From contig OZ024743.1 in the NCBI GenBank assembly GCA_964016885.1, forward strand, positions 193,378,001 to 193,442,000: DNA of 64,000 nt. The letters run 5' to 3'. Positions 9,701 to 60,247 of the stretch are shown piece by piece (position 1 is the stretch's first letter; each line of letters starts with the position of its first letter). The DNA comes from Eledone cirrhosa (taxonomy: Eukaryota). Below the pieces are notes generated by a model, which worked only from the letters and a program-made list of their open reading frames with translations, searched no databases and had not been told where the DNA came from. A program made the translations under genes and the position numbers.

Positions 9701-12100
9701 TATGAGGGGGGTCCGTTTTTTATTTGGGTGCCCCGTTTTTTTATTTGGGTGTCCGTTTTTTTATTTGGGTGTCCGTTTTTTTATTTGGGTGCCCCGTTTT
9801 CTTATGGGGGGTTCGTTTTTATTTGGGTGCCCACTATTTTGTGGGGGGTCCGTTTTTTATTTGGGTGCCCCCTTTTTTTATGAGGAGGGCGTTTTTTATT
9901 TGGGTGACCCGTTTTTTTATGGGGGGGTCCGTTTTTAATTTGGGTGCCCGTTTTTAATAGTGGGGGGATGTTGATTCTTTTTTTATTTGGGTGCCCGTTT
10001 TATAATGGGGGAGCGGTCCGTTTTTTATTTGCGTGACCGTTTTTTTATTTGGGTGACCCGTTCTTTATTTGGGTGCCCCGTTTTTTTTTTTGGGGGGGGG
10101 GGGGTCCGTTTTTTATTTGGGTGCCCCGTTTTTTATTTAGGTGCCCCGTTTTTTATTTGGGTGCCCCGTTTTTTTTATGGCGGGTCCGTTTTTTATTTGG
10201 GTGCCCCGTTTTTTATGGGTGGGGTCCGTTTTTTATTTGGGTGCCCCGTTTTTTTATGGAGGGTACGTTTTTTATTTGGATGCCCCGTTTTTTTATGGGG
10301 GAGGTCCGTTTTTTTATAAAAAAACCGACCTCTCCCATAAAATATCGGGTAGAAAAATAAAAAAACGGGGCACCCAAATAAAAGAACCGATTCCCCCAAA
10401 ATGAAAACGGACCTACAAATGAAAAATGGACCCCCGAAATAAAAAACGGATGACCCCCCATAAAAACGGGGCACCCAAATAATAAACGGACCCCGCCATA
10501 CAAAAACGGGGCACCCAATTAAAAAACGGACCTCCCATAAAAAAACGGGGCACCCAAATAAAGAACGCCCCCTCCCCTAAATAAACGGGGCACCCAAATA
10601 AAGAACGCCCCCCCCCATAAAAACGGAGCACCCAAATAAAAAATGGATCCGTTTTTATTTGGGGGGGATCCATTTTTTATTTGGGCGGACCCGTTTTTCA
10701 TTTGGGTGGATACGTTTTTTATTTGGGGGGATACATTTTTTTATTTAGGTGGGTCTGTTTTTTTATTTTTTGGCCCTTTTTTATTTTGGGGTGATCCGTT
10801 TTTTATTTGGGTGCATCCCTTTTTTATTTGTGAAGCGCACGCGTTTCTTATTTGGGGGTCCATTTTTTATTTGGGTGGACCCGTTTTTCATTTGGGGGAT
10901 CCGTTTTTTATTTGGGGGATCCCTTTTTTATTTGGGTGGATCCGTTTTTTATTTGGGAGGGGGGGGGGGGCGGTACCTTTTTTATTTGGGTGCCCCGTTT
11001 TTTATTTGGGTTCCCGTTTTTTATTTGGGTGCCCCGTTTTTTTATGGGGGGGTCCGTTTTTTATTTGGGTGCCCCGTTTTTTATGGGGGGTCCTTTTTTT
11101 ATTTGGGTGCCCCGTTTTCTTATGGGGGGTCCGTTTTTTATTTGGGTGCTCCCTTTTTTATGGGGGGGTCCGTTTTTTATTTGGGTGCTCCCTTTTTTAT
11201 GGGGGGGTCCGTTTTTTTATTTGGGAGCCCGTTTTTTTATGGGGGGGTTCCGTTTTTCATTTAGGTGCCCCGTTTTTTATTTGGGTGCCTGGTTTTTTTA
11301 TTTGGGTGTCCGTTTTTTTATTTGGGTGCCCCGTTTTCTTATGGGGGGGGGTTCGTTTTTATTTGGGTGCCCACTTTTTTTTATGAGGAGGGCGTTTTTT
11401 ATTTGGGTGACCCGTTTTTTATGGGGGGTCCGTTTTTTATTTGTGTGACGCGATTTTTTATGGAGGGGGGCGTCCGTTTTTATTTGGATGCCCCGTTTTA
11501 TATGGAGGGGGGCGTTTTTTATTTGGGTGCCCCGTTTTATATGGAGGGGGCGTTTTTTTATTTGGGTGCCAGGTTTTTTTATTTGGGTGCCCCGTTTTTC
11601 TATTTGGGTTCCCCGTTTTTTATTTGGGGCCCCGTTTTTTATGTGGTTGCGTCCGTTATTTTATTTGGGTGCCCGTATTTTATGGGGGGTCCGTTTTTTT
11701 AATATATATATGCATGTATATATCTATATATATATATTTTTTTTTATTTTTATCAAAAACGGACCACCTCCATAAAAAAACGGCCCTCCCCATAAAAAAA
11801 CAGGCACCCAAATAAAGAAACGGGGCACCCAAATAAAAAAACGGGGCACCCAAATAAAAAACGGGGCACCCAAATTAAAAAAACGGGGCACCCAAATAAA
11901 AAACGGACCCCCCGCCGCATAAAAAAGCGGGTTTTTTATTTGGGTGCCCCGTTTTTTATTTGGGTACCCCGTTTTTTTATGGGGTGTCCCTTTTTTATTT
12001 GGGTGCCCCGTTTTTTTATGGGGGGGTCCCTTTTTTATTTGGGTGCCCCGTTTTTTTATGGGGGTCGCTTTTTAATTTGGGTGCCCCGTTTTTTTATTTG
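763..12100. repeat. ~11.3-kb satellite array of ~20-bp units (TnATTTGGGTGCCCCG alternating with TnATGnTCCG)
   Basis: Hundreds of related units with variable homopolymer length; inverted blocks at ~10317-10645 and ~11755-11925. Confidence 0.97.
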
Positions 12101-13512: not shown

Positions 13513-13513
<1 letters not shown>

Positions 13514-14250
13514 TCGCGCATGCGCAGTATGGACCGGCCTTCGCGCATGCGCAGTACGGACCAGCCTTCGCGCATGCGCACTTCGGACCAGCCTTTGCGT
13601 ATGCGCCTTTTGGACCACACTTCGCGCATGTGAAGTATGGACCAGCCTTCGTGCATGCGCACTTTGGGCCAAACTTCGCGCATGTGCACTTCAGACCAGA
13701 CTTCGCGCATGCGCACTTTGGACCAGACTTCGCTGCATGCGCAGTATGGACCAGACTTCGTGCAAGCGCACTTCGGACCAGACTTCACGCATTTGCATGG
13801 ATCAGACTTCACACATGCGCTCTTCGGATAGACTTTGCGCATGCGCACTTCGGAACATACTTTATGCATGCGCACTTCGGATCAGACTTTGCGCATGCAC
13901 ACTTCGGACCAGACTTCGCGCATGTGCATGTCGGACCAGCCTTCGCATGCACACTTCGGACCAGACTTCGCGCATACGAACTTCGGACAACACTTTGCGC
14001 ATACGCACTTCGGACCAGACTTCATGCATGTGCACTTCGGACCAGACTTCTCGCATGCGCAGTACGGACCAGCATTCGCGCATGTGCACTTCCAACCAAA
14101 TTTCGCGCCTGCGCAGTACTGACCAACTTCGCGCATATGCACTTCTGACCAGACTTCATGCATGCGCACTTCGGACCAAACTTCGCATGCGCACTTCGGA
14201 CCAGACTTAACCCATGCGCTCTTCAGACCAGACTTCGCGCATGCGCACTA
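13513..14250. repeat. 27-bp tandem repeat (cttcgcgcatgcgcacttcggaccaga-like), ~27 copies
   Basis: Unit visible directly and as a 9-aa period (FAHAHFGPD) in ORF 13375..14148. Confidence 0.93.
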
Positions 14251-14515
14251 GGTACCTGACTTCGTGCATGTCCCACCCTGAAACCCTCCATTATACGTGT
14301 CTATGGAATGCTCAGACACTGTCATCTTAATTTCAGGCAGTTCCATTTGAGAACCTAGCTGGAAGAATCCTCGTCGCAAGTGATAGGGTACCATCATACA
14401 TATGAACACATAGACACACACACAAGTTTCAAAGAGAATAGAAGGGATCAATAAAATAAGTACTAGATTTTAAAATATATGTACTGGAATTGAGGTCAAG
14501 AAAAATCCTTTAATC

Positions 14516-17500
14516 GTGGTACCCCAGCATGGGCACAGTCTAACGTCTGAAACAAGTGCAGGCCGGAGAATTGTTATTCCTCCTTTAATCTATGGTTCCC
14601 CTCGCTTCTACAGTGAGTGCTTTCAGAATTTGATGACTGTGGTTCGACACATGGGAAAGCCATCTTATTTCATCACTGTAACAACTAATCCTAACTGGGA
14701 TGAAATAAAAAATAGTTTGCAACCTGGTGAAGAACCTAGAGACTGTCCTGATATTTGTGCAAGAGTTTTCAAGATCAAGTATGACAGCCTCATGGATGAC
14801 ATACTGAAAAAAAATGTCCTAGGAAAAGTTGTGGCTCATTCTGCTACAATAGAGTGGCAGAAAACGAGGCCTCACTCATGCTCATATTCTGCTGATAATA
14901 GCTGAAGATAGCAAGCCCAAAACTGCTGATGCCATTGATCAGGTAGTGTACTGTGAGATTCCTGATAAAGCGACCAATCCAATTCTGCATAAGATCATCA
15001 CATCCTGCAACATTCATGGTCCATGTGGACAAGCTAATATGATATCCTCATGTATGGACGGGCTAGGACAACAACGCCATTGCTCAAAAAGTTATCCCAA
15101 GGCATTCAGACAAACCACATTTGTTGCCAAAAATTCCTTTCCGGAGTATAGAAGAAGGGATAGACAGCATGGTGGTCACACCCATACAATCCAACTGAAA
15201 GGTCAAGAATTTACTGTTGATAATCGTTGGATTGTTCCATACAACCCTTTCCTCTTATTGAGATATCAGTGCCACATCAATTGTGAGGTTGTCCACAGTA
15301 TCAAGGTTGTTAAGTACTTATATAAGTACATCACAAAAGGATCAGACAAGATCCCTTTCACTATTAAGGATGATCAAGGAAATTGTGTCCATGCCCAAAA
15401 TGAGATTGAGACCTATATCAATGCATGGTACATCTCAGCCAGTGAAGCATTCTGGAGAATCTATAAATTTCCATTACATCATCGAAAACCACCAGTTGAA
15501 AAGTTACCTTGCCATTTACCTGGGGAACAAATGGCCGTGTATGAGTGAGGGCAGGAAGAAAGTATTGTTTATAGGGGACAGCCAATGACTAAGTTGACGG
15601 AATATTTTCAACTGAATATTAGAGATCCAATGGTACAAAACATATTGTATATTGATATTCCTAAATATTTCACTTGGACAAACAAAAAGTGGCAAAGAAG
15701 AAAAAAGGGACATCTGGATAGTGATCAACAATTTATGAGTGAATCGCTTGGACGCATTCCAAAAGTACCTCTCAGTAGACATCAATCTGAATTATATTAC
15801 CTCAGGATGATCCTACATCACAAGGCTAGGTCAACTTCATACACAGATTTGAGGACAATTGAAGGAGTTGAATTTCCAACATTCCAAGAAGCATGCAGGA
15901 AACTTGGTCTGTTAGATGAAGATGGAGAAAAAGACAAAGCTATGGAAGAGGCCTCATCCATTACGCTTGGTCCTCAGCTGCGAGAGATCTTCTGCACCAT
16001 TTTATTTTACAGCATGCCAAATGACCCTCTGCAGTTCTGGGAGAAATGGAAGAATTGTCTTGCAGAGGATATCATGCATGAACGTCATGAGCAAGTCATG
16101 TCCATGCAAACCATGCAGATTGTTCTACAGAAGCTCCAACAGGGTTCTTATGGCAGAAACTGATTTCAATACACACCAACTGCAAGCAAACATAAATGAA
16201 CTTCTGCCAACATTGAATCCTGAGCAACTGGTTATTTTTCACAAAGTAATCACCTCTGTAAATGAAAATGAAGGCAGAATTTTCTGCTTGAATGCAAGTG
16301 CAGGTACAGGAAAGACCTATGTCATAAACATCCTATTGGATCACCCCAACAAATGATGCAGCAAGATTGGTGAGTGAGTTCATGGTCAACAAGTTCCTTG
16401 ATCATGAAATAATCTACAGAAGCTCTGATACAGTAGATAATTGTTTCTACTTTTGGCACAAGGCCAGCAATTACCCAGTACATTACTGGTACTTTATTTT
16501 ATCGACCCCGTAACGATGAAAGGCAAAGTTAACCTCGGCGGGATTTGAACTTAGACCGTAAAGGGACGTAACTATGCTGAAAGCATGGCGTCCGGCCCTC
16601 TACCGATACTGCCAATCCACCGCTGTAGATACAGTAGATAATGAACTGCAATATCCAATTGAGTTCATCAACAAACTTACCCCATCAGGCTTCCCAACAC
16701 ATACTTAAACTGAAGAAAGGCAGTTGCATCATGCTTCTGAGAAATTTGGATCCTCTAAACAGGCATTGTAGTGGTACATGCTACATCATCATCAGTTTAC
16801 ATAATCATGTAATTGAAGCTGAAGTGGCATTGGGTCCCAATGCTGGAACAAGGCTGCTAATCCCAAGGCCACTAATCCTCAAGAGCTTGAGTTCCCTTTC
16901 ACCTTTACTCGCAAGCAGTTTCCTGTCAAGCCAGCCTTTGCCCTTACATGCCACAAGGCACAAAGGCAGACATTTGAAAAGATAGGTGTATATCTACCAA
17001 CACAATTCTTCTCACATGGTCAGATGTATGTTGCATTATCAGATGTATGTTGTATTATATTAAATGAAAGGGTCTGTTTGCTGACAACTGTGTCTACAAA
17101 GAAATTCTACAGTGATGTGAAACAGCTATCACTCTCTTTTAGTTGAAATGCATTTCAGCTACTTTTTAACTGCTAGAAAAGGGACACTACAAAAACTTAA
17201 GAAGTCTATATGTGAATACAGTAAAACAACAATATAGTGAAGGTCAACTCTTCATATTGGTAAATGTAATTCATTCATTCATACCAGCAGCATCTATTTT
17301 CAAATTCACTGCTTGAAGCTTCCCATCGACATTCTCAAGTGAAGATTCATGAACATTTTCCGTCAACAGTTTCATCACTTTTCTATCTCCATTATCACTT
17401 TTTTAAAAAAATATATCATGGATTACTTTACTGATTACAGAAGTAAGTGTAACACAGTCTTTGTTCAGTTTATGTGCATATTGTCAATTGATGTATTATA

Positions 17501-18572: not shown

Positions 18573-21548
18573 TCATCATCATCATCATCATCATCAACGT
18601 TTAACGTCCGTGTTCCATGCTTGCATGGGTTTGGACGGGGGTAGTCCCACTTGAGGCAAGAGTGATTGTCTTGCTCGCATAGGACTGTCTGGCAGGTTTT
18701 CTACAGTTGGATGCCCTTCCTAACACCAACCACATTTACAGTGTGGGTCTGGGAGGTTTTTACCGTGTTGCCTACACGGCCACATTACAGCGTGGACTGT
18801 GTGTTTTTTTGTCGTGACACCTACACGATCTCATTTGTTTCGGCCTGGATGGCGCGGCACCAACATAACTTTACATAGAACGGGGTGGTGTGGATGGGGT
18901 GGGGGTGGTGGCGGACGGGGTGTATTTTGTTAGAGATGCCTACTGGCAAGGCGGGTCTTCTCTGTTACTGAGTACCGCCAAAGGTCTCGGTCCAGTGACA
19001 TTGTCTTGGAGAGGTGTAAGTGTGTGAGGTCGGAGTTTATCAGCTCGTCCCAGGTTTTTCTAGGTCTGCCTATTCCGTGGCTACCGTCTATCTTTATTGC
19101 CCTGCACTTTGTTATACAGCTATCGACTTTCATGCGCATCACGTGTCCATACCAACGTAGCCTTCTCTCGAGTAAACAACATCTGATCCCTCTTATCTCT
19201 AATTTTTTCCTTAGTTCGTTTATGCTTTGCCGTTCACGTATATTACTGTTACACATCCAGCGGAGCATGCAAGCTTCGTTCTTCTCTAGTCTGCGTATAT
19301 CCTCTGCACACAATGCCCAGGTCTCACTGCCATGCAACATTGCTGTTCGTATGCAGGCATCGTACAACCTGCCTTTCATTTTTAGGGAGAACCCTTTAGC
19401 AGCTAATAGTGGTATAAGCTCTCTGAACTTTTTCTAACCAGTTCTGACTCTAGCTACTGTACTTTCAGAGCACCCTCCCCCACTGCTGATTTTATCGCCC
19501 AGGTAATGGAAGCTGTCCACTATTCTATAGAACCCTCTGCGCAATTGAAAGAGCTAGTATTTTGTGGGCACTTGCTGCTACTTATTGCACCAGAACACCG
19601 GCCACATGTAAAATCTATGTTCTTAGTTAGCTTACCTGTGATCCCACTACATCTTTTATGCACCCATACTTTGCATTTAGGACATAAAATGGAGTTTCTA
19701 CCTACGCCTTTCCTACACACCGAGCACGACCATTTCCCAGAAGGGACCGCCGCCTTGTTTTCTTTCCTACAAACTAGAACTTTAGTCTTAGCCAGGTTAA
19801 TTTTAAGTCCTTTTGACTCTAGGCCGTGCTTCCATGTTTGGAATTTCTTCTCTAGCTCGGCCATTGATTCCGCTATGAGTGTCAGGTCGTCTGCGTATAG
19901 GAGTTCCCATGGGCAGCCGGTCTTGAACTCCTCTGTTATAGCCTGAAGGGCAATAATAAATAGTAGGGGGCTGAGAACAGAGCCCTGATGGACGCCAACT
20001 TTTACGCTAAACTCTTCACTATATTCGTTGTTAATTCTAACCTTGCTGACTGTTTCTTTATACATGGCTTGTATAGCCCTCACAAGCCATTCGTCAACGC
20101 CTAGTTTTCTAAGAGCCCACCAGATAATGGAGCGGGGGACTCTGTCGAAGGCTTTCTCCAAGTCGACAAAAGCTAAGTAGAGGGGATTACCTTTAGCTAG
20201 GTACTTCTCCTGTAGTTGTCGTACTATGAAAAGAGCGTCTGTGGTACTTTTGCCTGACACAACCCCGAACTGCATTTCATCTAGGTCAATTCTCTCTCTG
20301 ATTAGTTGCGCTATTACTTTTTCCGTGACCTTCATGACCTGGTCGATTAATTTAATGCCTCTATAGTTACTCCTATCTAGGGCGTCTCCTTTACCCTTAT
20401 AACAGTTAACGATGATGCTGCTATGCCAGTCCTTCGGAACAACCCCATTCTGTACGACTTGGTTAACTATGCGGGTGACCATGGTGTGTCCCACCGTGCC
20501 AGATGCCTTCAGCATCTCAGCAACTATTTCCGAAGGCCCAGCCGCCTTACCCGTCTTCATATCCTCGATTGCCTTACTTATTATACTCCCCTCGACTAAC
20601 ACTGCTGGTCCCTCTATTGGGTCGATATGGGGGAGACTGTCTTTCTCCCATTTATTCTCCTCATTTAGTAGCCTTTCATAGTGACACTTCCAAGCTACCT
20701 TCTTATCAGCGTCGGTGATGGCAAGTATGCCATCATCGTTAAGTACACACTTCTCCCCGACAATATCACGGTTTTCCTTGACGCATTGCCTAGCAATCCT
20801 GAACACCTCACGTTTTTGGTCATCGCGTTGTAGAACGTGCTTGAACTTTCTTTCCTCAGCTTCCCTTCTTGCTAAGTACACTTGTCTCCTAGCTTCCCTC
20901 CTGGCCACTTGATAGTCTTCTCTACTTCCCCCATCCCGCCATACTTTCCAAGCCTGCTTTTTGGCCTTAATTGACCCCTCCACCTTACTGTTCCACCACC
21001 ATGTTACTCTCCTCCTGCCTACAGGCCTGCTCCAGCCACAGACTTCGTCTGTCGCCAACAGCAGGTTTGCATTCAGAAATTCCCACTGTCCCTCTATATT
21101 GTCCGACTCTAAATGTTCTTCCTTACTGTCGAAAGCATCAAGTAATATGCTTTGAAATTTATTTCTGGCTGTGGGGTCCTTTAGCTTCCATATTTTTCTC
21201 CTGAGGATAGTCCTCTTCTGCTGTCGAGTACGTCTCGTCCTGACTATGAGGTCGCTAATTATCAGTCTATGTTGGGAGGTGCATTCTTCATGGGGGAGGG
21301 ATTTAGTGTTTACAACAGACACTCTGTCACGTCTTCTGGTAAGGATATAATCTACCTGGCTTGTGTGTTCCCCGGATCTATAGGTGATCAGGTGATTGTC
21401 ACGTTTTTTGAAGTTAGTGTTACAGATAGTTAGGTTATTTGCATCACAGAATTCCAGGATTCTGGAGCCTTCCTCATTTCTAGTACCAAACCCATAGCCT
21501 CCATGGATTTCGTCGTAGCCGTCACAATGTTGTCCAACGTGACCATTT
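18573..21548 (-). mobile_element. RTE-clade LINE, 5'-truncated in the APE domain, with in-frame stops
   Basis: RT motifs AFVDLEKAFD, GVHQGSVLSP, LLYADD; C-terminal LRWYGHVMR, GRPRKTW; (GAT)n tail; stops near 19520 and 19436. Confidence 0.96.
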
Positions 21549-21565
21549 ATATATATATATAAGTA

Positions 21566-21734
21566 AAGTGTGGCTGAAACTCGAGTACGGGTATAGATTG
21601 AAGGTACCCATTTACGTGTGTTGTGTTAAAGCGAATAATTATGTGTCTACTCTGGAGTTTACTTAACATTACCTATTGAGTACGCCGAGATGCAACCGGT
21701 ACTAGCAATGAAACCCATGCTAGTCTCGTCAACT
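21566..21734. repeat. Right arm of the ~170-bp inverted repeat
   Basis: Reverse complement of 18326-18495. Confidence 0.9.
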
Positions 21735-27721: not shown

Positions 27722-29160
27722 GGTCAGTGACGTCACGTAAGTGGCTGGGGAGCCTTGCTAGAAGTATAGAGGTCAGTGACGTCACATAGGTGGCTGGAGA
27801 GCCTTGCTAGAAGTATAGGAGTTAGTGACGTCATATAGGTGGCTGGAGAGTCTTGCTAGAAGTATAGGAGTTAGTGACGTTATATAGGTAGCTGGAGAGC
27901 CTTGCTAGAAGTATAGGAGTTAGTGACGTTATATAGGTAGCTGGAGAGCCTTGCTAGAAGTATAGGAGTTAGTGACGTCATATAGGTGGCTGGAGAGCCT
28001 TGCTAGAAGTATAGGAGTTAGTGACGTCATATAGGTGGCTGGAGAGCCTTGCTAGAAGTATAGGAGTTAGTGACGTCATATAGGTGGCTGGAGAGTCTTG
28101 CTAGAAGTATAGAGGTCAGTGATGTCATATAGGTGGCTGGAGAGTCTTGCTAGAAGTATAGAGGTCAGTGATGTCATATAGGTGGCTGGAGAGTCTTGCT
28201 AGAAGTATAGGAGTTAGTGACGTCATATAGGTGGCTGGAGAGTCTTGCTAGAAGTATAGGAGTTAGTGACGTCATATAGGTGGCTGGAGAGCCTTGCTAG
28301 AAGTATAGGAGTTAGTGACGTCATATAGGTGGCTGGAGAGCCTTGCTAGAAGTATAGGAGTTAGTGACGTCATATAGGTGGCTGGAGAGTCTTGCTAGAA
28401 GTATAGGAGTCAGTGATGTCATATAGGTGGCTGGAGTGTCTTGCTAGAAGTATAGAGGTTAGTGATGTCATATAGGTGGCTGGAGAGTCTTGCTAGAAGT
28501 ATAGGAGTTAGTGACGTCATATAGGTGGCTGGAGAGTCTTGCTAGAAGTATAGGAGTTAGTGACGTCATATAGGTGGCTGGAGAGCCTTGCTAGAAGTAT
28601 AGGAGTTAGTGACGTCATATAGGTGGCTGGAGAGTCTTGCTAGAAGTATAGGAGTCAGTGATGTCATATAGGTGGCTGGAGAGTCTTGCTAGAAGTATAG
28701 AGGTCAGTGATGTCATATAGGTGGCTGGAGAGTCTTGCTAGAAGTATAGAGGTCAGTGATGTCATATAGGTGGCTGGAGTGTCTTGCTAGAAGTATAGAG
28801 GTCAGTGATGTCATATAGGTGGCTGGAGTGTCTTGCTAGAAGTATAGAGGTCAGTGATGTCATATAGGTGGCTGGAGAGTCTTGCTAGAAGTATAGAGGT
28901 CAGTGATGTCATATAGGTGGCTGGAGAGTCTTGCTAGAAGTATAGAGGTCAGTGATGTCATATAGGTGGCTGGAGAGTCTTGCTAGAAGTATAGGAGTTA
29001 GTGACGTCATATAGGTGGCTGGAGAGTCTTGCTAGAAGTATAGGAGTTAGTGATGTCACATAGGTGGCTGGAGAGTCTTGCTAGAAGTATAGGAGTTAGT
29101 GATGTCATATAGGTGGCTGGAGAGCCTTGCTAGAAGTATAGGAGTTAGTGACGTCATGTA
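27722..29160. repeat. 49-bp minisatellite, ~30 copies, containing TGACGTCA
   Basis: Unit gttagtgacgtcatataggtggctggagagccttgctagaagtatagga; exact 49-bp period (27727, 27776, ...). Confidence 0.97.
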
Positions 29161-35908: not shown

Positions 35909-36769
35909 TGTGTGTGTGTGTATATATATGTGTGTGTGTGTGTGAGTGTTCGTGTGTGCGTGTGTGTGTGTGTGTGTAAACCACCGTTGGAACCGGAGAC
36001 ATAGGCCGCGAAACACGATCATCATTGACAACGAACTCGCAGAGAGAATCCTTATGGTTGATTCCCAACCTGCTAGAAATAGCAGTCAGGTTGGTTAGCA
36101 TACGTGGTATGTCTTTCTTCTTCTTTGGTGTTATAAAATTAGTATCAATAAACTTTCCTGGATATACTCTTATCCCAATCCTGTACATACTTTCCGATTG
36201 TCACTTTTCGTTTTTTTTCGTGTGATACGCGAAGGAACCAACCAACAAACATTTTATATTATGTATAGGTTACTATATCTCTTTTATTTGTTCATTCAAC
36301 ATATTTTTCAGCTAATTCTGTCGTACAATATACATCAGCAATCGTTATCTAATGTTTAAAACATATGAATAAATGCGATATATGCACCATATCAATCAAA
36401 AACGATATGAGAATTGAATACCATACTAAAGTGCCAGTAAGCTTGCTAAGAACCTGCAGATAGAAATGTTAATAAATACAACATTTGGCTTGAGTAAACT
36501 TTAAGATGTTCTTTCATTGTAGGTTTCTTTTCTCCGTCTCTCCTTCTTTATTTCTCTCTCCCCCCCCCCTCTCTCTCTCTATATATATATACATATATAT
36601 ATATATACATTTAGAAACACACAGATACACGCGGACACACACATATATACATGAATGCATCCGCACCCAACTGTGAGTTAAGGGTGCCAACTTCACCGAT
36701 GTTGCTCAATGAATGACTGGGACAGACCAATTCAGTTTGAACCAGACTGAACCAGTATCAGAGTTAAAA

Positions 36770-37342
36770 ATACATTATGAAGAGAGAAGAAACATTTAGA
36801 TATAATTAGTAATAAAATGTATCATACCTAAACTGTTCCTAAATTCCTCGACTACGTAGTTTCGTGGCATAAACAAAAACAATATATCAAAGATATAGAG
36901 TCCTTGCGAGGTCTGCCGACTTATCAAGAGGATACCTCATTTTACTAGTCTCAAGAACGCGTCCACACGACGTGAGAAAGAATCCCAAAAGGCGGAGGGC
37001 GAGATAGTCACGCGATATAACGGTCGAGAAACAGTGCTAAGCCTCTTATAACCACGAAAAAAATACCACGGAGGCGGAGGGGGTATTCATATCGAGGCCG
37101 TAGAAGAGGTAGTGAAGAAGGCGAGAAGTATGAGTAATGGAAGCTTTCCAGTTGTCCCCACACTTCAAAGATTGCTCGACCAGAGGGAGTTATTAATACA
37201 TTTAGAAACACACAGATACACGCGGATACACACATATATACATGTTTATGCCACGAAACTACGTAGTCGAGGAATTTAGGAACAGTTTAGGTATGATACA
37301 TTTTATTACTAATTATATCTAAATGTTTCTTCTCTCTTCATA

Positions 37343-37348
<6 letters not shown>
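36770..37348. mobile_element. Penelope-like terminal repeat relic with ~105-bp inverted repeat
   Basis: 36770-36875 is the reverse complement of 37243-37348; carries the hammerhead; 47-bp direct repeat at 36606-36652 and 37196-37243. Confidence 0.7.
36845..36932 (-). ncRNA. Type I hammerhead ribozyme motif, U3-A8 variant
   Basis: UCCUC-UUGAUAA-GUcGGCA...UGCCAC-GAAA-CUacguAG-UC^GAGGA; stems I, II and III all pair. Confidence 0.8.
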
Positions 37349-37379
<31 letters not shown>

Positions 37380-37382
<3 letters not shown>

Positions 37383-39366: not shown

Positions 39367-42300
39367 TCATCATCATCATCATCATCACCGTTTTACGTCA
39401 GTTCTTCCACGCTAGCATGGGTTAGACGGGTTGTCCTGTGTGGGCAGTGTCTGGTCGGCTGACCATGCCTTGCTCATACAGGAACTGATTTGGCTTGATT
39501 TCTACAACTGGATGCCCTTCCTAACACCAACCTCATTTACAGTGAGTGCTGGGTGCTTTTTCGTGGTACCTACACGTCCACTTTACAGTGTGGGCTGGGT
39601 GCTTTTTTGCCGTGGCACCTCCACGACCACCTTGCAGTGGGAGGTTGTGGGGGCATATTGTCTATATGCTTCAGCTTGTACCCATGGGAGGTCGGATACT
39701 CTATATTACTGCGTGACGCCAGAGGTCACGGTCGTGTGTCATCGCCTTTGAGAGGTGTAATTGGGTAAGGTCGGCTTTTATCACCTGATCCCAGGTCATC
39801 TTGGGTCTCCCCACTCCGCAGTTTCCATCGACTTCTAGTGTTCTGCACCTTTTTATGCAGCTGTCATCCTTCATACGCATCACATGTCCATACCAACGCA
39901 TCCACCTCTCCTGCACACAGCATTTGATTCCTCTTATGCTCAGTCTCTCTCTCAATTCATTTATGCTTTGTCGTTCGTGTATATTACTATTACACATCCA
40001 TCGGAGCATGCAGGCTTCGTTTCTCTCTAATCTACGTAAGTCTTCCACCTTCAGCGCCCAGGTCTCACTACCATGTAACATTGCTGTTCGGATACACGCA
40101 TCATACAGTCTGCCTTTCATTTTGAGGGAGAAGCCTTTTGCAGCTAGCAGTGGTAGTAGTTCCCTGAACTTCTTCCATCCCGTTCTTACCCTAGTTATTG
40201 TACTTTCTGAACACCCACCTACGCTGCTAATTCGGTCACCTAGGTAGCAGAAGCTGTCTACTGTCTCTACAGAGCCCTCCCAGAGATTGGTGGTACTTGT
40301 TTCCTGTGGCTGTTTGCTGCTTGCTGTCCCAGTACAGCTGCTGCATGTGAAGCCTACATTCTTAATTAAGCTTCCTGAGATCCCGCTACATCTCTTGTGT
40401 ACCCATTGTTTGCATTTGGGGCAGAGAATGAAGTTCCTACCTACACCTTTCCTACATACTGAGCAAGGCCATTTCCCTGAGGGGATCTGGGTTCTGTTTT
40501 CTCGTCTACTTACAAGGACCTTAGTCTTTGTCATGTTGACTTTGAGACCCTTTCTTTCTAGTCCCTGCTTCCAAGTTTGGAATTTCTTCTCTAATTCTAC
40601 CATAGATTCAGCTATAAGTGCGAGGTCATCAGCATACAGGAGTTCCCATGGGCATCCAGTCTTAAACTCCTCCGTTATTGCCTGCAGGACTATGATGAAC
40701 AGGAGAGGGCTAAGAACAGAGCCCTGGTGGACCCCAACCTGTATGCTAAATTCCTTGCTATACTCATTGCTAATCCTAACTTTGCTGACTGCTCCCCTAT
40801 ACATGGCTTGTACAGCTTTCACAAGCCATTCATCTACTCCTAGTTTTCTAAGAGCCCACCAAATTACAGCATGTGGAACTCTGTCAAAGGCTTTCTCGAG
40901 ATCGACGAATGCCAGGTAGAGTGGCTTACTTTTAGCTAGGTACTTTTCCTGTAACTGCCTCACAAGGAAGAAGGCATCAGTGGTGCCTCTTCCTGGTACA
41001 AACCCAAATTGCATCTCATCTAGTTTCACCCGGTCCCTAATCAACTGTGCTATAACTCTTTCTGTTACTTTCATGACCTGGTCCATCAGCTTTATACCTC
41101 TATAGTTTCCTCTATCTAGTGCATCACCTTTACCTTTGTAGCAGTTGACAAGGATGCTACTACACCAATCTTTTGGTATGACACCTTCTAGTATTACCTG
41201 GTTAACAATACGTGTGGTTATAGTGTGACCTACAGACCCAGATGCCTTCAGCATCTCGGCAGCTATACCCGATGGACCGGTTACCTTCCCCATCTTCATA
41301 TCTTTGATTGCCTTACATACTACGCTGCTGCTCACTTGTACTGCTGGCCCCTCTATAGGGTCTCTTCTTCCCATGCATTCTCCTCATTTAGTACTCGATC
41401 ATAATGGCTCTTCCATGCATCTTTCTTCTCAGTACTTGTGAGGGCAAGCTCACCTTTATCATTCCGGATACACTTCTCTCCAATGACATCACAATACTCT
41501 CTGACACACTGCCTTGCAATCTTGAACACCTCCTGTTTCTGGTCCTCACGTTGCAAAACATGCTTGAATTTTCTATCCTCTGCTTCCCTCCTAGCTAAGT
41601 ATACTTGTCGCCTAGCTTCCCTCTTGGTCTCTATGTAATGTATCCTGCTGCCCCCGTTCTTCCATTCTTTCCATGTCTGTCTCTTGGCCTTAACTGCCTC
41701 ATCTACCTTATTGTTCCATCACCAAATCACTCTCCTTCTGCTTGTGGTCTTACTCCAGCCACAGACCTCATCTGTCGCCTCTAGTAGGTTATTTTTTAGG
41801 AACTCCCAGTGCTCTTCTACATTGAATGTCTCTATCTGTTCTTCTTTACTGTCGTAGGCGTCGAGTAAAATATCTTTAAATCTGTTACTGGCTGAGGGGT
41901 CTTTCAGCTTCCACATCTTTATTCTCCAGGTTGGCCTCTGTTTCCAGGTTTGTCTAGTTCTGACTGTGAGGTCGCTGACAACTAAGCTATGTTGGGAGGT
42001 ACATTCCTCACTAGGGAACGCTTTTGTGTTTACAACCGTCCTTCTGTCACGTCCTCTGATGAGGATAAAATCTATATGACTAGAATGCTCCCCTGGTCTA
42101 TAGGTGATCAGGTGGTTGTCGGGTTTTTTGAAGTTTGTGTTACATATCGACATGTCATTGGCGTCGCAGAATTATAGAAGTCTGAATCCTTCTTCATTTC
42201 TTGTGCCAACCCCGTGGCCTCCATGGACTCTATTGAAGCCGTCACAGTGTTTACCTATGTGTCCGTTAAAATCTCCTGCGATGATTAGGAAGTCATTGTC

Positions 42301-43524
42301 GTTTGTTAGAGCAGTAGTGTGCATTAGGGACTCGTAAAATCTATCCTTAAGTTCGTCTGGCAACCCCGATTGGGGTGCGTAAGCTGATATTATTGTGGTA
42401 ATTGTTTTATTCAGGACTAGTCTGAGTTTAATGATTCTTGCATTTACCCTGTACACTGAGATTACTTTATCTACCCACTTGTCAGCTAGTAGTATACCTA
42501 CACCACCCATCCCATCGTCATTTCCCACCCAGAAAAATTTGTAGCACCGACTTTTTCCTACAAGGACTCTAGCAGACTCTCCTCTCCATCTAGTCTCTTG
42601 CACACAGCATGCATCAATTTCCTTTCGCTCGAGCATCTCTACGATTTCTCCTGCTCTTCCTTTCATCGTGCTTACATTGATGGTACCAACTTGGAGTTTT
42701 GGGCATTTGTCGACACTCGTACTGATGGGTCGATTTTTGCAGGGGTGTGTGTGTGCTTCCTCTCTCTGGATTGGTGCTTCACATGGGTGCTTGGTAGCTC
42801 GCGGATTCATATTCATTTCATCTATTAATTCAGAGTTGCTCCAAATTATTCTCAGCTCATCCATCCATACCGGTAGGAAAAATTCAGGGCTAGAACAGTG
42901 GTGGTGGTAATAATGGCAGGGTGTGTTGGGCTGGGACGGGGGAGGAGAGAGTTAGGTAGTAATAGTAGAAGAAATGGTATGCTGAGGTTTGATTGGTTGA
43001 ATAGACTATGGTGGTGTGAGGGAAATTGTGGGGTAGAGAGAGGTTCGCCGTCAAGGCTAACAAACTAACTGATAGAAGACAGCATGGCAAAGTAGCCGAT
43101 AGAATACAGCAACAATAATATTAATAATAGCCAGTCATGGCCTGTAGCCTTAGATGGAAAAATAGTCAGAGACAGAGTCAGCATGGTAAGGAAAGAATGA
43201 GGATAACAAAATAGATGTGTTGTGGTGGCTGAAATACCTGGCCAGATTTGTATGGATGGATGACTGGAACGTAGCTAAATCAACTCTAGTGATTCATTTT
43301 AGCCTTTCAGAGTAGAGTGTCTTATCTCTTCAATAACTTTAAGATGAGTGAGGAGGAACGGGTGAAGAGGGAACGAGAGGTAATAGGTGGCTTAGAGATG
43401 GATAGAGAGAGAGAGAGAGATAGAGAGAGGGTAGCCATCATAGAGAGAGAGATAGAGAGAGGGTAGCCATCATAGAGAGAGGGTCGCCGTCAAGGCTAAC
43501 AAACTAACTGATAGAATACAGATT
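39367..43524 (-). mobile_element. Near full-length RTE-clade LINE (APE+RT), inactivated
   Basis: APE motifs GTINV, VQETRW, SAYAPQ, AGDFNGH; RT YADD; stops at ~42172 and ~41719; TSD attat(c/t)tattca at 39355-39366 and 43525-43536; (GAT)n tail. Confidence 0.96.
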
Positions 43525-44350: not shown

Positions 44351-44434
44351 TGAGCTTTTTCTCTTACTGGTAATTGGGTAGTGCTTAATACTACCCTTTC
44401 ATATTTATAATTATATATAACTCATATGATGATG

Positions 44435-46510
44435 ATCATCATCACCATTTTACGACCATTCTTCCACGCTAGCCTGGGTTAGACGAGTTGTCCTGTTGTG
44501 GGCAGTGCCCAGTCAGCTGACCATGTCTTGCTTATACAGGAACTGATTCTGGCTGGGTGCTGGGTGCTTCTTTTCCGTGGCGCCTACACTTCCACTTTAC
44601 AGTGTAGGCTGGGTGCTATTTTGCCATGGCATCTCCACGATCACTTTGCAGTGGGAGGGTGTGGGGGCATTCATCTACTCCGAGTTTTCTAAAAGCCCAC
44701 CAGATTATAGCACGGGGGACTCTGTCAAAGGCTTTCTCGAGATCGAAGAATGCCAGGTAGAGTGGCTTACTTTTAGCTAAGTACTTTTCCTGTAACTACC
44801 TCACAAGGAAGAGGACATCAGTGGTGCCTTTTCCTGGCACAAACCCAAATTGCATCTCATCTAGTTTCACCTGGTCCCTAATCAACTCTGCTATAACTCT
44901 TTCTGTTACTTTCATGACCTGGTCCATCCGCTTTATACCTCTATAGTTTCCTCTATCTAGTCCATCACATTTACCCTTCTAGCAGTTGACATTGATGCTG
45001 CTGCACCAATCCTTTGGTATGACACCCTCTAGTATTACCTGGTTAACAATACGTGTGGTTATGGTGTGACCTACAGACCCAGATGCCTTCAGCATCTCGG
45101 CAGCTATAGCCGATGGACCGGTTGCCTTCCCCATTTTCATATCTTTGATTGCCTTACTTACTATGCTGCTGCTGACTTGTATTGCTGGCCCCTCTATAGG
45201 GTCTACTTGGGGTAGGGTTCTTTTTCCCATGCATTCTCCTCATTTAGTAATCTTTCATAATGGCTCTTCCTCGCATCTTTCCTCTCAGCACTTGTGAGGG
45301 CAAGCTCATCTTTATCATTCCGGATACACTTGTCTCCAATGACATCACAATTCTCTCTGACACACTGCCCCGCAATCTTGAACACCTCCTGTTTCTGGTC
45401 CTCACGTTGCAAAACATGCTTGAATTTTCCATCCTCCGCTTCCCTTCTAGCTATGTATACTTGTCGCCTAGCTTCCCTCCTGGTCTCTATGTAATGTACC
45501 CTGCTTCCCCCGTTCTTCCATTCTTTCCATGCCTTTCTCTTAGCCTTAACTGCCTCATCTACCTTATTGTTCCATCACCAAATCATTCTCCTCCTGTCTG
45601 TGGTCTTGCTCCAACCACAGATCTCGTCTGTTGCCTTTAGTAAGTTATATTTAAGGAACTCCCAGTGCTCTTTTACATTGAATGTCTCTATCTGTTCTTC
45701 TTTACTGTCATAGGTGTTGAGTAAAATATCTTTAAATCTGTTACTGGCTGAGGGGTATTTCAGCTTCCAGATCTTTCTTCTCCAGGTTGGCCTCTGTTTC
45801 CAAGTTCGTCTAGTTCTGACTGTGAGGTCGCTGACAACTAAGTTATGTTGGGAGGTACATTCCTCACTAGGGAAGGCTTTTGTGTTTACGACGATCCATC
45901 TGTCACGTCCTCCGATGAGAATAAAATCAATCTAGAATGCTACCCTGATCTATAGCTGATCAGATGGTTGTCGGGTTTTATATCGATATGTCATTGGCGT
46001 CGCAGAATTCTAGAAGCCTGAAGCCTTCTTCATTTCTTGTGCCAAACTCGTGGCCTCCATGGACTCTATAGAAACTGTCACGGTGTTTACCTACATGTCC
46101 GTTAAAATCTCCTGCAATGATTAGGAAGTCATTGTCATTTGTTATGCCAGTAATGTGCATTAGGGACTCGTAAAATCTATCCTTAAGTTCGTCTGGCAAC
46201 CCCGATTGGTGTGTGCTGATATTATTGTGGCAATTATTTTATTCAGGACTAGTCTGAGTTTAATGATTCTTGTGTTCACCCTGTTCACTGAGATTACCTT
46301 ATCTGCCTATTTCTCAGCTAATAGTATACCTACACCACCCATCCCATTGTCATTTCCCACCCAGAAAAATGTGTAGCACTGACTTTTGCCTACAAGGACT
46401 CTAGCAGACTCTCCTCTCCATCTAGTCTCTTGCACACAGCATGCATCAATTTCCTTTCGCTCTAGCATCTCTATGATTTCTCCTGCTCTTCCTTCCATTG
46501 TGTTTACATT
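44435..46510 (-). mobile_element. RTE LINE copy with the RT core deleted and a 5' truncation
   Basis: Colinear with ~40835-42680; joined at ~44672 directly to the 3' UTR; multiple stops. Confidence 0.92.
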
Positions 46511-46578
46511 GTGCTTACATATATAAGTGTAAATAATATTATTAGCATATATATATACACACATATATATATACATAT

Positions 46579-46616
<38 letters not shown>

Positions 46617-46647
46617 ACACAGACACACACAGACACACACACACACG

Positions 46648-46694
<47 letters not shown>

Positions 46695-46699
<5 letters not shown>

Positions 46700-47232
46700 T
46701 TAGTTAAGCAAAACAAGACCACAGATTTCACAAGGAAGACATTATTAAAAGATTGTCAACATATTTTAGTTTGATGTAAGGAATGTACAGAATAATAATA
46801 ATAATGTCCGTTTACAATTGTTTCGCTACTCCATATAATATTTCTAGATCAAATGATTATATATCATTATTGATATGATTCAGTTGAAAATAATTAACGA
46901 AGGTAGAAATAGAGCAGCTCATCGGAACATCAAAAGGAATATAAATTAAAATAAGGAAAGTATGTTACATAAATGTAATGTTCCACATGTTGGTATTTCA
47001 CTATGGTGATATCTTGGCTAGGGCCCAACCGTTCAATGGACGAAGAAAATCTTGTGAACTCTGTCTTACCGAAGTATATTACATAACTCTATCATGACCT
47101 CTACCGATTAATGATAGAAAGGAGGTAACTATTAGCTGTCAACATCGAAGGGCTAATTCCTTATGTTGACAATCTTTTAATAATGTCTTCCTTGTGAAAT
47201 CTGTGGTCTTGTTTTGGTTAACTAATGAATAT
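46695..47232 (+). mobile_element. Penelope-like 3' fragment with inverted terminal copy
   Basis: 47005-47169 GDILARAQPFNGRRKSCELCLTEVYYI..*..INDRKEVTISCQH; 46695-46762 is the reverse complement of 47163-47230. Confidence 0.8.
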
Positions 47233-57890: not shown

Positions 57891-58039
57891 TATATATATA
57901 TATATATGGCATTATGTAGTAATACAGAAACCTGCCTTCCAATGGGCACAGGCTGAAGTTGAAGCATACATATATATAGTATGCACCACTCTTCCCTACA
58001 TCTCCCATGGGGTCAGGCTGAAGCATGCATCTAGTGAAG

Positions 58040-58445
58040 CCTCCAGCCCACACTATAAAGTGATTGTGATGGTGACACAGCAAAAAGCATCCAGCCCACA
58101 CTGTAAAGTGGTCATGTAGGTGTCATGACAAAAAGCACCCAGTCCACACGTTAAAGTGGTTGCGTAGGTGTCATGACAAAAAGCATCCAGCCCACACTGT
58201 AAAGTGGTCATGTAGGTGTCATGACAAAAAGCACCCAGTCCACACGTTAAAGTGGTTGCGTAGGTGTCATGACAAAAAGCAACCAGCCCACACTGTAAAG
58301 TGGTCATGCAGGTGTCATGACGAAAAGCATCCAGTCCACACGTTAAAGTGGTTGCGTAGGTGTCATGACAAAAAGCAACCAGCCCACACTGTGAAGTGGT
58401 TGTGTAGGTATCACAACAAAAAGCACCCAGTACTCACTGTAAATG
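58040..58445. repeat. 48-bp tandem repeat with alternating variants inside an RTE 3' UTR copy
   Basis: 16-aa period KKHPAHTVKWSCRCHD / KKHPVHTLKWLRRCHD; RTE tail at 58445-58600. Confidence 0.9.
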
Positions 58446-58911
58446 TAGTTGGGGTTAGGAAAGGCATCCAGCTGTAAAAACCAAGCCAAAATCAGTTCTG
58501 TATGAGCGAGACATGGTAACCTAACCTGGCATTGCTCACAACAGGACAACTCGTCTAATGCTAGTGTGGGAAAATGATGATGGTGATGATTATGATATTC
58601 GGTGATAATGATGATGATGATGATATTCGATAATGTTGGTGAAGATGATTATGATGATGGTTATGATGATGGTGATGAGATAATGAAGTTGTATGGCAAT
58701 ACACTAAATGTTAAGATGCTGTACACATGCCTCACAAAGAGTTGGTGCCTGGCAGGGACACTTGGCTGTAAAACATTGCCTTAAAACATCCCAGCCAACC
58801 CATACCAACTTGGAAAATTCAACATAAAAACAATGACAATGATTCTTTGCTTCCTAGAATTCTATTTTGTAATATTTACTGATTTCTTTGTAAGTTTCTT
58901 TAAATCTTCTT

Positions 58912-59233
58912 GTATAATAGTTAATAATTTGAAATATTACTTTAGCTCTATAATAGTTAATCATTTTAAATATTACTTTAACTCTATAATAGTTAATAAT
59001 TTGAAATATTACTTTAACTCTATAATAGTTAATAATTTGAAATATTACTTTAACTCTATAATAGTTAATAATTTGAAATATTACTTTAACTCTATAATAG
59101 TTAATAATTTGAAATATTACTTTAACTCTATAATAGTTAATAATTTGAAATATTACTTTAACTCTATAATAGTTAATAATTTTAAATATTTCTTTAGCTC
59201 TATAATAGTTAATAATTTGAAATATTACTTTAT
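58912..59233. repeat. 36-bp AT-rich tandem repeat, ~9 copies
   Basis: Unit ctctataatagttaataatttgaaatattactttaa. Confidence 0.95.
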
Positions 59234-59640: not shown

Positions 59641-60048
59641 ACCACGCCTTAGGCCCAGAGCCCATTACTCTCCTTGCTTTTCTTTCTTCTGTGGCCCTAT
59701 AGTCCTTGCTTTTCCTCTCATTTATAGCTTTCATAGTCCTTTCCTTTACTTTCCCATACAGTCAGATCTGCCCTTCCTTACCTCTTCCCCTTTTCCTCAT
59801 TAATTAATTTTGCTTTTATCTTTCTTTCTCATATTCTTAGAAATAAACATAAATTTGAGACACTGGTTGTTAACATTGGCTAAGTAACAATATTATATAC
59901 TTTGGTAATACTGGGTTCTTCTGTGGCCTTAGAGCCATGCTTTTCCTTTCCTTTTCCATTGGTGGCGTTTCTCTAATTATTTTATAGTCATCCATTCATG
60001 TAGTTACTCATTTTTTAAATTTTGCATATTTTCTTATTTAATTTTCAG

Positions 60049-60188
60049 TTGAAAATCGTATTGTTTTGAGAGAATTAGATGTTGTGAATAAGATGATAAG
60101 TTTGATTGGTAACCCTGATTGGCCAGATCTTCATATTATGGCTGTGATGGTGTTGTCAAATATGATGGAAGATGTGGAGACTGTTGAA
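60049..60188 (+). CDS. ARMC3: ARMC3 coding exon 7 (ENRIVLRELD...DLHIMAVMVLSNMMED)
   Basis: CAG/GTGAGT; phase 1 to 0. Confidence 0.92.
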
Positions 60189-60247
60189 GTGAGTCATAGC
60201 AAATGTATTTCAGTATTTCAGTATTTTAAGTCTTTGTTAGTGACTAC

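Follow-up and report, generated by a model that had tools for sequence, protein, structure and literature searches.

What kind of genetic element carries the hammerhead-like sequence present at 36845..36932, on the minus strand of the window (the whole 64-kb stretch of DNA analysed here), and how might that element be copied? An earlier note had read a complete hammerhead at this place, and the sequence bears out all of its parts (stems, core, GAAA, palindrome, GUC and cut position) at the positions given there. What the note had overlooked is the mobile tandem repeat, with units of 591 nt, in one unit of which the motif lies.

The hammerhead motif and its 591-nt unit

The motif is a type I hammerhead with an open stem I of 5 bp (UCCUC 36932-36928 / GAGGA 36849-36845). 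Then come the core U3 U4 G5 A6 U7 A8 A9 (UUGAUAA, 36927-36921), which is the U3-A8 variant, a bulged stem II of 6 bp (GU(C)GGCA 36920-36914 / UGCCAC 36869-36864), GAAA (36863-36860), stem III (36860-36851), whose sequence ACUACGUAGU is a perfect 10-nt palindrome giving 2 bp as a hairpin or 8 bp as a duplex, and the GUC site, in which C17 is 36850 and the predicted cut falls between 36850 and 36849. The elements of a hammerhead core, i.e. a 3-8 pair (here U3-A8), GAAA and UC, are all present, and a descriptor allowing either C3-G8 or U3-A8 gave this single match over both strands of the window (128 kb of strand). The motif does not fall within a hammerhead covariance model, none of the 33 Rfam matches at E<=1 being to a hammerhead; standard searches therefore do miss the U3-A8 motif, as the note had anticipated. 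Taken in isolation the fold has no more than ordinary stability (z -0.57, with 59 of 200 shuffles doing as well). The long loop ascribed to stem II is there, but it is a structured hairpin extension (36874..36906, minus strand), in which 7 of 13 pairs change on one side with the pairing kept.

An old subfamily, about 72-76% identical, was retrieved with a probe taken from outside the ribozyme. Between old and young subfamilies, 41 of the 42 columns of core and stems are the same, against 357/474 elsewhere (p 3.6e-4); the catalytic-core columns are unchanged (12/12) across about 25% divergence, and the ribozyme halves themselves form the two longest stretches of identity (29 and 26 nt). Since the ribozyme columns are kept far above the rest of the unit, they are under selection; as judged from these alignments, the ribozyme letters are selectively conserved between subfamilies. 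The old subfamily lacks the outermost pair of stem II. The covariation among genomic copies proposed as a check was not seen; core and stems I-III display invariance instead, with almost invariant pairs, no compensatory change and no both-sided change in 11 sequences, and a search for copies altered in both bases of the second pair of stem III had 0 matches. The U3-A8 pair, which the note called compensatory, is so with respect to the canonical core but not within the family, where the 11 copies departing from U3 all keep A8 and none (0/11) is C3-G8. Variation that leaves the pairing intact is seen in the extension of loop II and in the hairpins downstream. Four of the changes are double-sided, and all of these separate the old lineage from the young one; relatedness limits the statistic.

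The repeat has a period of 591 nt in genomic arrays and is non-coding, its longest stop-free stretch being 77 codons; blastp of the unit against the long frames of local PLE loci gave no match. Arrays reach about 5 units, each unit with a type I hammerhead, while the window copy is a monomer. Its main arm (36605..37243, minus strand) is 639 nt long, running from 37243 to 36605, and consists of one unit (37243-36653) plus 48 nt of the next, terminating at what we call site B. It is joined 5' to 5' with a 106-nt inverted, 5'-truncated arm (37243..37348, plus strand), a 100% copy of unit positions 369-474 which terminates at site A. The latter arm contains the 3' strand of stem II, GAAA, stem III, the cut site and the 3' strand of stem I, that is, only the 3' half of the hammerhead, in agreement with the note. 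Both arms are flanked by (TA)n, with a (TA)n-rich target run past site B (36580..36604) and a (TA)n run past site A (37349..37380). A 45-nt direct repeat (36608/37198) was considered as a target-site duplication and rejected, being the beginning of the following unit. Two CCCTCCGCCT motifs (36988..37087, minus strand) lie in runs identical between subfamilies, at unit positions 157-172 and 242-256; they are possible internal promoter boxes. The window copy is probably inert, since it has a single hammerhead and no second one, and since RNA initiated past 37348 would include a 106-nt antisense stretch against the 3' half of the ribozyme. We take it to be a dead product rather than a source, the monomer being likely blocked by its own antisense arm.

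Genome-wide (3.0 Gb), an 18-mer across stem III has 7,696 exact copies, and 0 for the reversed control. Complete core, stem II and stem III patterns number at least 3,631 + 3,050 = 6,681, all controls being 0; this count combines two complementary patterns, one of which covers the commonest loop length, absent from the other. The 591-nt circle is predicted to fold at -171.0 kcal/mol with 62% of its bases paired (z -5.3, 40 shuffles). Closed contigs of the unit (621 and 620 nt) assembled in two runs were dropped as a hint of circles, for a collapsed tandem suffices: a neighbouring LINE is at similarly low depth in both runs. No description of the family was met in the papers covered, though it may already bear a name in a repeat library. 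The word 'ribozyme' is absent from the main text of PMC13282606.

The window holds a variety of other repeats. An approximately 11-kb degenerate 20-nt minisatellite with internal inversions occupies 765-12100, together with sub-threshold Rfam miRNA matches; shorter minisatellites are at 13513-14271 (27 nt), 27726-29157 (49 nt), 58037-58451 (48 nt) and 58913-59232 (36 nt). Broken frames at 14474-16356, two pieces of which gave no Pfam match, resemble a Helitron Rep/helicase. LINE copies of one kind are found at 18930-21625, 39370-42950 and 44430-46700; the first two encode an RT followed by a PHD finger, one of them also with an AP-type endonuclease piece. A short non-repetitive frame at 60042-60240 may be a host exon and has no Pfam match.

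Insertion ends and template variants

Insertions were mapped at 128 loci of one contig (C1), 48 of them taking in the first 100 matches to an internal 18-mer, 69 from a list of site A junctions and 11 from a list of site B junctions. The copies are 5'-truncated arrays in (TA)n, including partial tandems, often with an inverted arm; no LTR-like layout was found in the arm maps of the 128 loci. Among the 205 arms clear of locus edges, 109 have their 3' end at site A (36770, +80 nt from the cut), 84 at site B (36605, +245 nt from the cut) and 12 elsewhere, i.e. 193/205 end at A or B, and TA-rich DNA follows 183 of these 193 ends. In the 48 loci picked by the internal 18-mer, hence blind to the ends, 71/78 arms terminate at A or B (hand count). 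Exact junctions in the whole genome amount to 2,495 at A and 1,165 at B.

The 5' ends behave differently from the 3' ends in that they are scattered round the unit. The median arm length is 511 nt and the longest arm has 2,907 nt (4.9 units); the lengths deviate from a simple exponential (KS p 0.006). A small cluster of 5' ends (12/205) at unit positions 566-574 (window 36678-36670), beside a predicted hairpin, is possibly a pause site of reverse transcription. No pile-up was found at the cut site: 2/205 arms end within 392-398, and only 2 of the 175 arms that reach the cut stop there. Cut linear RNA is thus not the usual template; circles and uncut multimers fit equally well.

A strict regularity emerges when the two arms of an insertion are considered together. 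Among 71 inverted pairs, 64 associate one A end with one B end (2 of these 64 being local duplicates, L043 and L218), 7 involve another end, and neither A+A nor B+B was ever seen (0 each). The loci chosen blind to ends gave 23/27 A+B. Insertions therefore show two internal 3' ends, with a 'tail', here of 165 nt, at one end only. A 'tail at one end' is already known for PLEs, in qualitative terms; in the papers covered, we met no tally of one site per arm as a strict rule, nor of template variants common to the copies of an insertion. One two-arm junction (L075:5205-5265) contains about six copies of an 11-nt fragment of the unit, as if slippage had occurred during joining.

The nature of the template was approached through shared variants. 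Of the informative shared-variant columns, 260/283 agree among copies of the same insertion and 547/4,164 (13%) among copies from different insertions, leaving out 5 compound loci (two insertions or a duplication); with these included, 627/689 copy pairs within insertions agree. Divergence is 0.37% within an insertion and 2.8% between insertions, the closest other insertion being at a median of 0.39%. Of 137 variants private to a single insertion, 24 occur in all of its copies. The agreement within insertions indicates that both arms, and all units, derive from one template variant.

Folding, mobilization and rival explanations

The genome also contains a coding PLE with comparable features. 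L099 (2273-7700, minus strand; also L100, L104, L106, L108, L110 and L111) encodes an RT, a CX4CX2C linker and a GIY-YIG domain, with a minimal U3-A8 hammerhead in each pLTR; we call it Neptune/Nematis-type, a clade name based on the linker motif alone. A 36-mer spanning the U3-A8 hammerhead of this family has 10,444 copies in the genome. The family, too, ends in (TA)n at two fixed sites, +82 and +150 from the cut, and six of the eight inverted pairs seen use one of each, none using the same end twice; the other two are interrupted, or cut by the locus edge, in one arm. The first ends of the two families (+80 and +82) are 2 nt apart, and the end motifs look alike by eye. The A+B rule of the 591-nt family, repeated in this coding PLE, suggests that a single RNA primes both target strands.

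Beyond these resemblances the two families also differ. Both have U3-A8, a palindromic stem III, (TA)n targets, two fixed ends used one per arm and similar pyrimidine-rich end motifs, but the coding PLE has stems I and II of 4 bp each, a 68-nt tail and RT and GIY-YIG domains, and shows no alignable homology to the unit. BLASTN of the unit against 43 loci with GIY-YIG or other hammerheads, a small sample of the 10,595 GIY-YIG candidate frames of the genome (150 were scored), revealed no homology beyond microsatellite-like stretches. With nothing shared beyond short end motifs, the L099 family is a candidate partner only, whose protein may help to mobilise the repeat. No autonomous parent sharing the pLTR of the unit was met in this non-exhaustive search: no arm in the 128 mapped loci enters a coding frame of its own, and the 43 other loci showed no homology to the unit. 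At L047:4510-4640, an arm of the 591-nt family has its 5' end directly against the 3' end of the coding PLE, no (TA)n separating them. This possible mixed insertion or template switch was not counted as evidence, being a single case that insertion beside an older fragment explains equally well. A few other sequences deserve mention: another pLTR family (L087, L089, L103, L105, L111, L162 and others), whose pLTR is about 73% like that of L099 as far as the ribozyme; two C3-G8 minimal hammerheads 511 nt apart (L109:9068 and 9579, plus strand), accompanied by the palindrome ACTAGT and probably belonging to one more pLTR or retrozyme-like family; and more distinct C3-G8 motifs in L119, L120 and L107, of which L120 has an inverted pair.

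The energetics of stem III are +3.2 kcal/mol as a hairpin and -9.5 kcal/mol as an 8-bp duplex. The favoured duplex fits cleavage as dimers in tandem transcripts, and PLE hammerheads reportedly do cleave as dimers. Together with the conservation between subfamilies, this upholds the view of the motif as a PLE-type hammerhead with U3-A8 and a palindromic stem III suited to dimers; the earlier reading is supported, but both traits had been published before. A candidate pseudoknot between loops I and II would pair UGAGGU, directly 5' of stem I (36934..36939, minus strand), with ACCUCG in loop II (36907..36912, minus strand). It comprises 6 bp (-6.9 kcal/mol) and is retained in the old subfamily with one single-sided U-G/U-A change; its columns are kept 11/12, which for conservation alone is not significant (p 0.31). 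In the whole unit the lowest-energy fold is an inactive one, as both strands of stem I are captured, by a short hairpin on the 5' side and a long one downstream. The active fold of the circle lies 9.3 kcal/mol above it, a figure that leaves out the pseudoknot and the dimer. The long hairpin, directly after the cut (36779..36849, minus strand), is predicted in young and old subfamilies, and the 3' strand of stem I can be tied up in its base. The region 36850-36600 folds at z -6.14, and the 165-nt tail between sites A and B (36605..36770, minus strand), as delimited by end mapping, is structured, with the 4 double-sided changes in hairpins. An AU-rich stem of 10-11 bp between A and B is predicted in 41/48 young, 4/4 intermediate and 0/6 old sequences and is absent in the coding PLE.

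On account of the two fixed 3' ends, the (TA)n target, the partial tandems, the inverted arm and the likeness to the coding PLE, we consider it probable that the 591-nt repeat is a non-autonomous PLE, i.e. a non-LTR retrozyme, whose RNA self-cleaves as a dimer and is copied by the RT/GIY-YIG protein of a local coding PLE. Multi-unit arrays would be transcribed, and neighbouring hammerheads would exchange their palindromic stems III and cut as a pair, perhaps aided by the loop I/loop II pseudoknot and a bound protein; unit-length RNA would then be ligated into a circle. The PLE protein would nick both (TA)n strands, and reverse transcription would begin at site A off one strand and at site B off the other, with one RNA molecule serving both. 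Each cDNA would halt at a variable point, and the pair would be joined 5' to 5', unless a single arm survives. A more detailed version can be offered as tentative only. The ribozyme-made circle might present its two AU-rich start sites, face to face on a stem mimicking (TA)n, to both active sites of a dimeric PLE protein, so that both cut strands prime on, and roll round, the same molecule and leave the A+B signature, the pseudoknotted, dimer-dependent U3-A8 hammerhead being held off until the protein binds. The A:B stem is the weakest part of this version, given its absence from the old sequences and from the coding PLE. If true, the family records how the inverted and tandem insertions of PLEs form.

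Other explanations have to be weighed against this one. The same element might be moved by the same machinery with a hammerhead that rarely cuts and is kept as a structure bound by the PLE protein, the template being uncut multi-unit transcripts rather than circles. Inactive folds are indeed lower in energy, arms run through the cut site, and insertion of Poseidon_Ac in vitro did not need cleavage, and no reads ended at its cut site (PMC11167929). Also, the divergence within insertions equals the median to the nearest insertion, which does not single out circles. We nevertheless find this rather unlikely: all catalytic-core columns are unchanged between subfamilies that are about 25% divergent, related animal retrozymes accumulate as circles (PMC7229834), and arms of 2,907 nt would need long source arrays, which 5' truncation would erode at each round unless a circle rebuilds them. 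Much further from the data is the suggestion that the fold is a chance arrangement within a repeat. The modest stability of the isolated fold and the silence of Rfam would suit it, but a single descriptor match in 128 kb of strand, the conservation of core and stems, and a position relative to the 3' end that is the same as in the coding PLE make it scarcely conceivable.

The two arms of an insertion overlap in sequence, and to our knowledge L1-type twin priming does not yield such arms; this speaks against a SINE-like passenger of an ordinary LINE, as do the likeness to the local coding PLE (+80 versus +82) and the two internal fixed 3' ends, partial tandems and inverted arm, which are PLE anatomy (PMC8557442). 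LINE-type RT and endonuclease frames are near in the window, no pLTR homology was found in the 43 loci and PMC7229834 leaves LINEs open as mobilisers. We hold a LINE passenger to be very improbable. Spread of a satellite as DNA, whether by unequal crossover, by gene conversion or by rolling-circle transposition of DNA, with a fossil hammerhead, would account for the near identity of array units and for the two loci, L043 and L218, where a whole insertion is locally duplicated. It does not account for dispersed arrays of 1-5 units with fixed 3' ends, ragged 5' ends and a single target type, nor for selection on RNA pairing in the hairpins; the end map largely refutes it, and we grant it next to no credit. 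The non-autonomous PLE thus remains our preferred reading.

Comparison with known hammerheads, retrozymes and PLEs

The hammerhead motif in itself is ordinary for PLEs: U3-A8 is found in about 1,300 Schistosoma PLE motifs, with a palindromic helix III and a low, dimer-requiring activity (PMC4209133), and both natural U3-A8 hammerheads and the commonness of pseudoknots in hammerheads are on record (PMC3088659). The Schistosoma U3-A8 and Drosophila virilis Penelope hammerheads (PMC4209133) resemble the present one in being of type I, with a short stem I, a long stem II bulged in mid-stem, a palindromic stem III and a covariant U3-A8. Theirs lie in a pLTR beside an ORF, whereas that of the 591-nt family lies in a non-coding tandem unit and has an 8-bp dimer stem III and a loop II of about 44 nt with a candidate pseudoknot. 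Searches based on CUGANGA or on Rfam overlook well over 17,000 hammerhead copies in this genome (6,681 + 10,444).

Non-LTR retrozymes were defined in PMC7229834, which shows their circles and names PLEs as candidate mobilisers; a preprint (10.64898/2026.07.22.740005) links retrozymes to pLTRs and gives units of 51-972 bp. The 591-nt family is like them in its non-coding, AT-rich tandem units, each with a type I hammerhead, and its thousands of copies (PMC7229834), as well as in a highly self-paired predicted circle and coexistence with PLEs (PMC7229834; 10.64898/2026.07.22.740005). Its unit exceeds the 150-450 bp of PMC7229834 but is within the range of the preprint. It differs from them by U3-A8, a long structured loop II and an active fold that is not the lowest of the circle, the latter being a prediction here, and by arrays that are short and dispersed, lie in (TA)n and have inverted arms. 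Prediction of dimers is no guarantee of cleavage: for the Xenopus retrozymes 1/9 predicted dimers cleaved and 8/9 did not (10.64898/2026.07.22.740005). As a young, abundant, non-coding substrate with the end geometry of a coding PLE of the same genome, the family ties a retrozyme to PLE machinery.

The closest biochemical parallel is Poseidon_Ac, where two internal RT start sites lie about 85-92 nt after the cut (a distance obtained here by subtraction), both target strands are extended, the protein is a predicted dimer and the ribozyme is protein-assisted (PMC11167929). Both systems have two start sites downstream of the hammerhead, the first about 80-90 nt after the cut, an AT-rich target and extension of both strands. 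Spacing is 165 nt in the 591-nt family against 30-40 in Poseidon_Ac; two-armed insertions have one of each site here, whereas a strand difference was not seen in the Poseidon_Ac assays in vitro; and sites A and B end in AU-repeat-like letters resembling the target, whereas the Poseidon_Ac start is reported not to be homologous to the cut DNA (PMC11167929). The rule of one start site per arm and one template per insertion is directly testable in vitro.

How PLE tandem and inverted insertions form, and which enzyme moves animal retrozymes, are questions stated to be open (PMC8557442, PMC7229834). PMC8557442 describes non-autonomous PLEs and, as PLE anatomy, insertions into microsatellites with partial tandems, 5' copies in inverted orientation and a tail of 30-40 bp that is often present at a single end. 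The 591-nt family shares with the Chlamys non-autonomous and EN+ PLEs (PMC8557442, PMC9977147) head-to-tail multicopy insertions, 5' truncation, an inverted 5' copy, a one-end tail and a microsatellite target without a clear target-site duplication; the microsatellite target is also that of Neptune/Naiad. It differs from the Chlamys elements in that it carries a hammerhead and that, beyond short end motifs, clear 3' homology to an autonomous family was not found; and its tail is 165 nt long, against the 30-40 bp of PLEs (PMC8557442).
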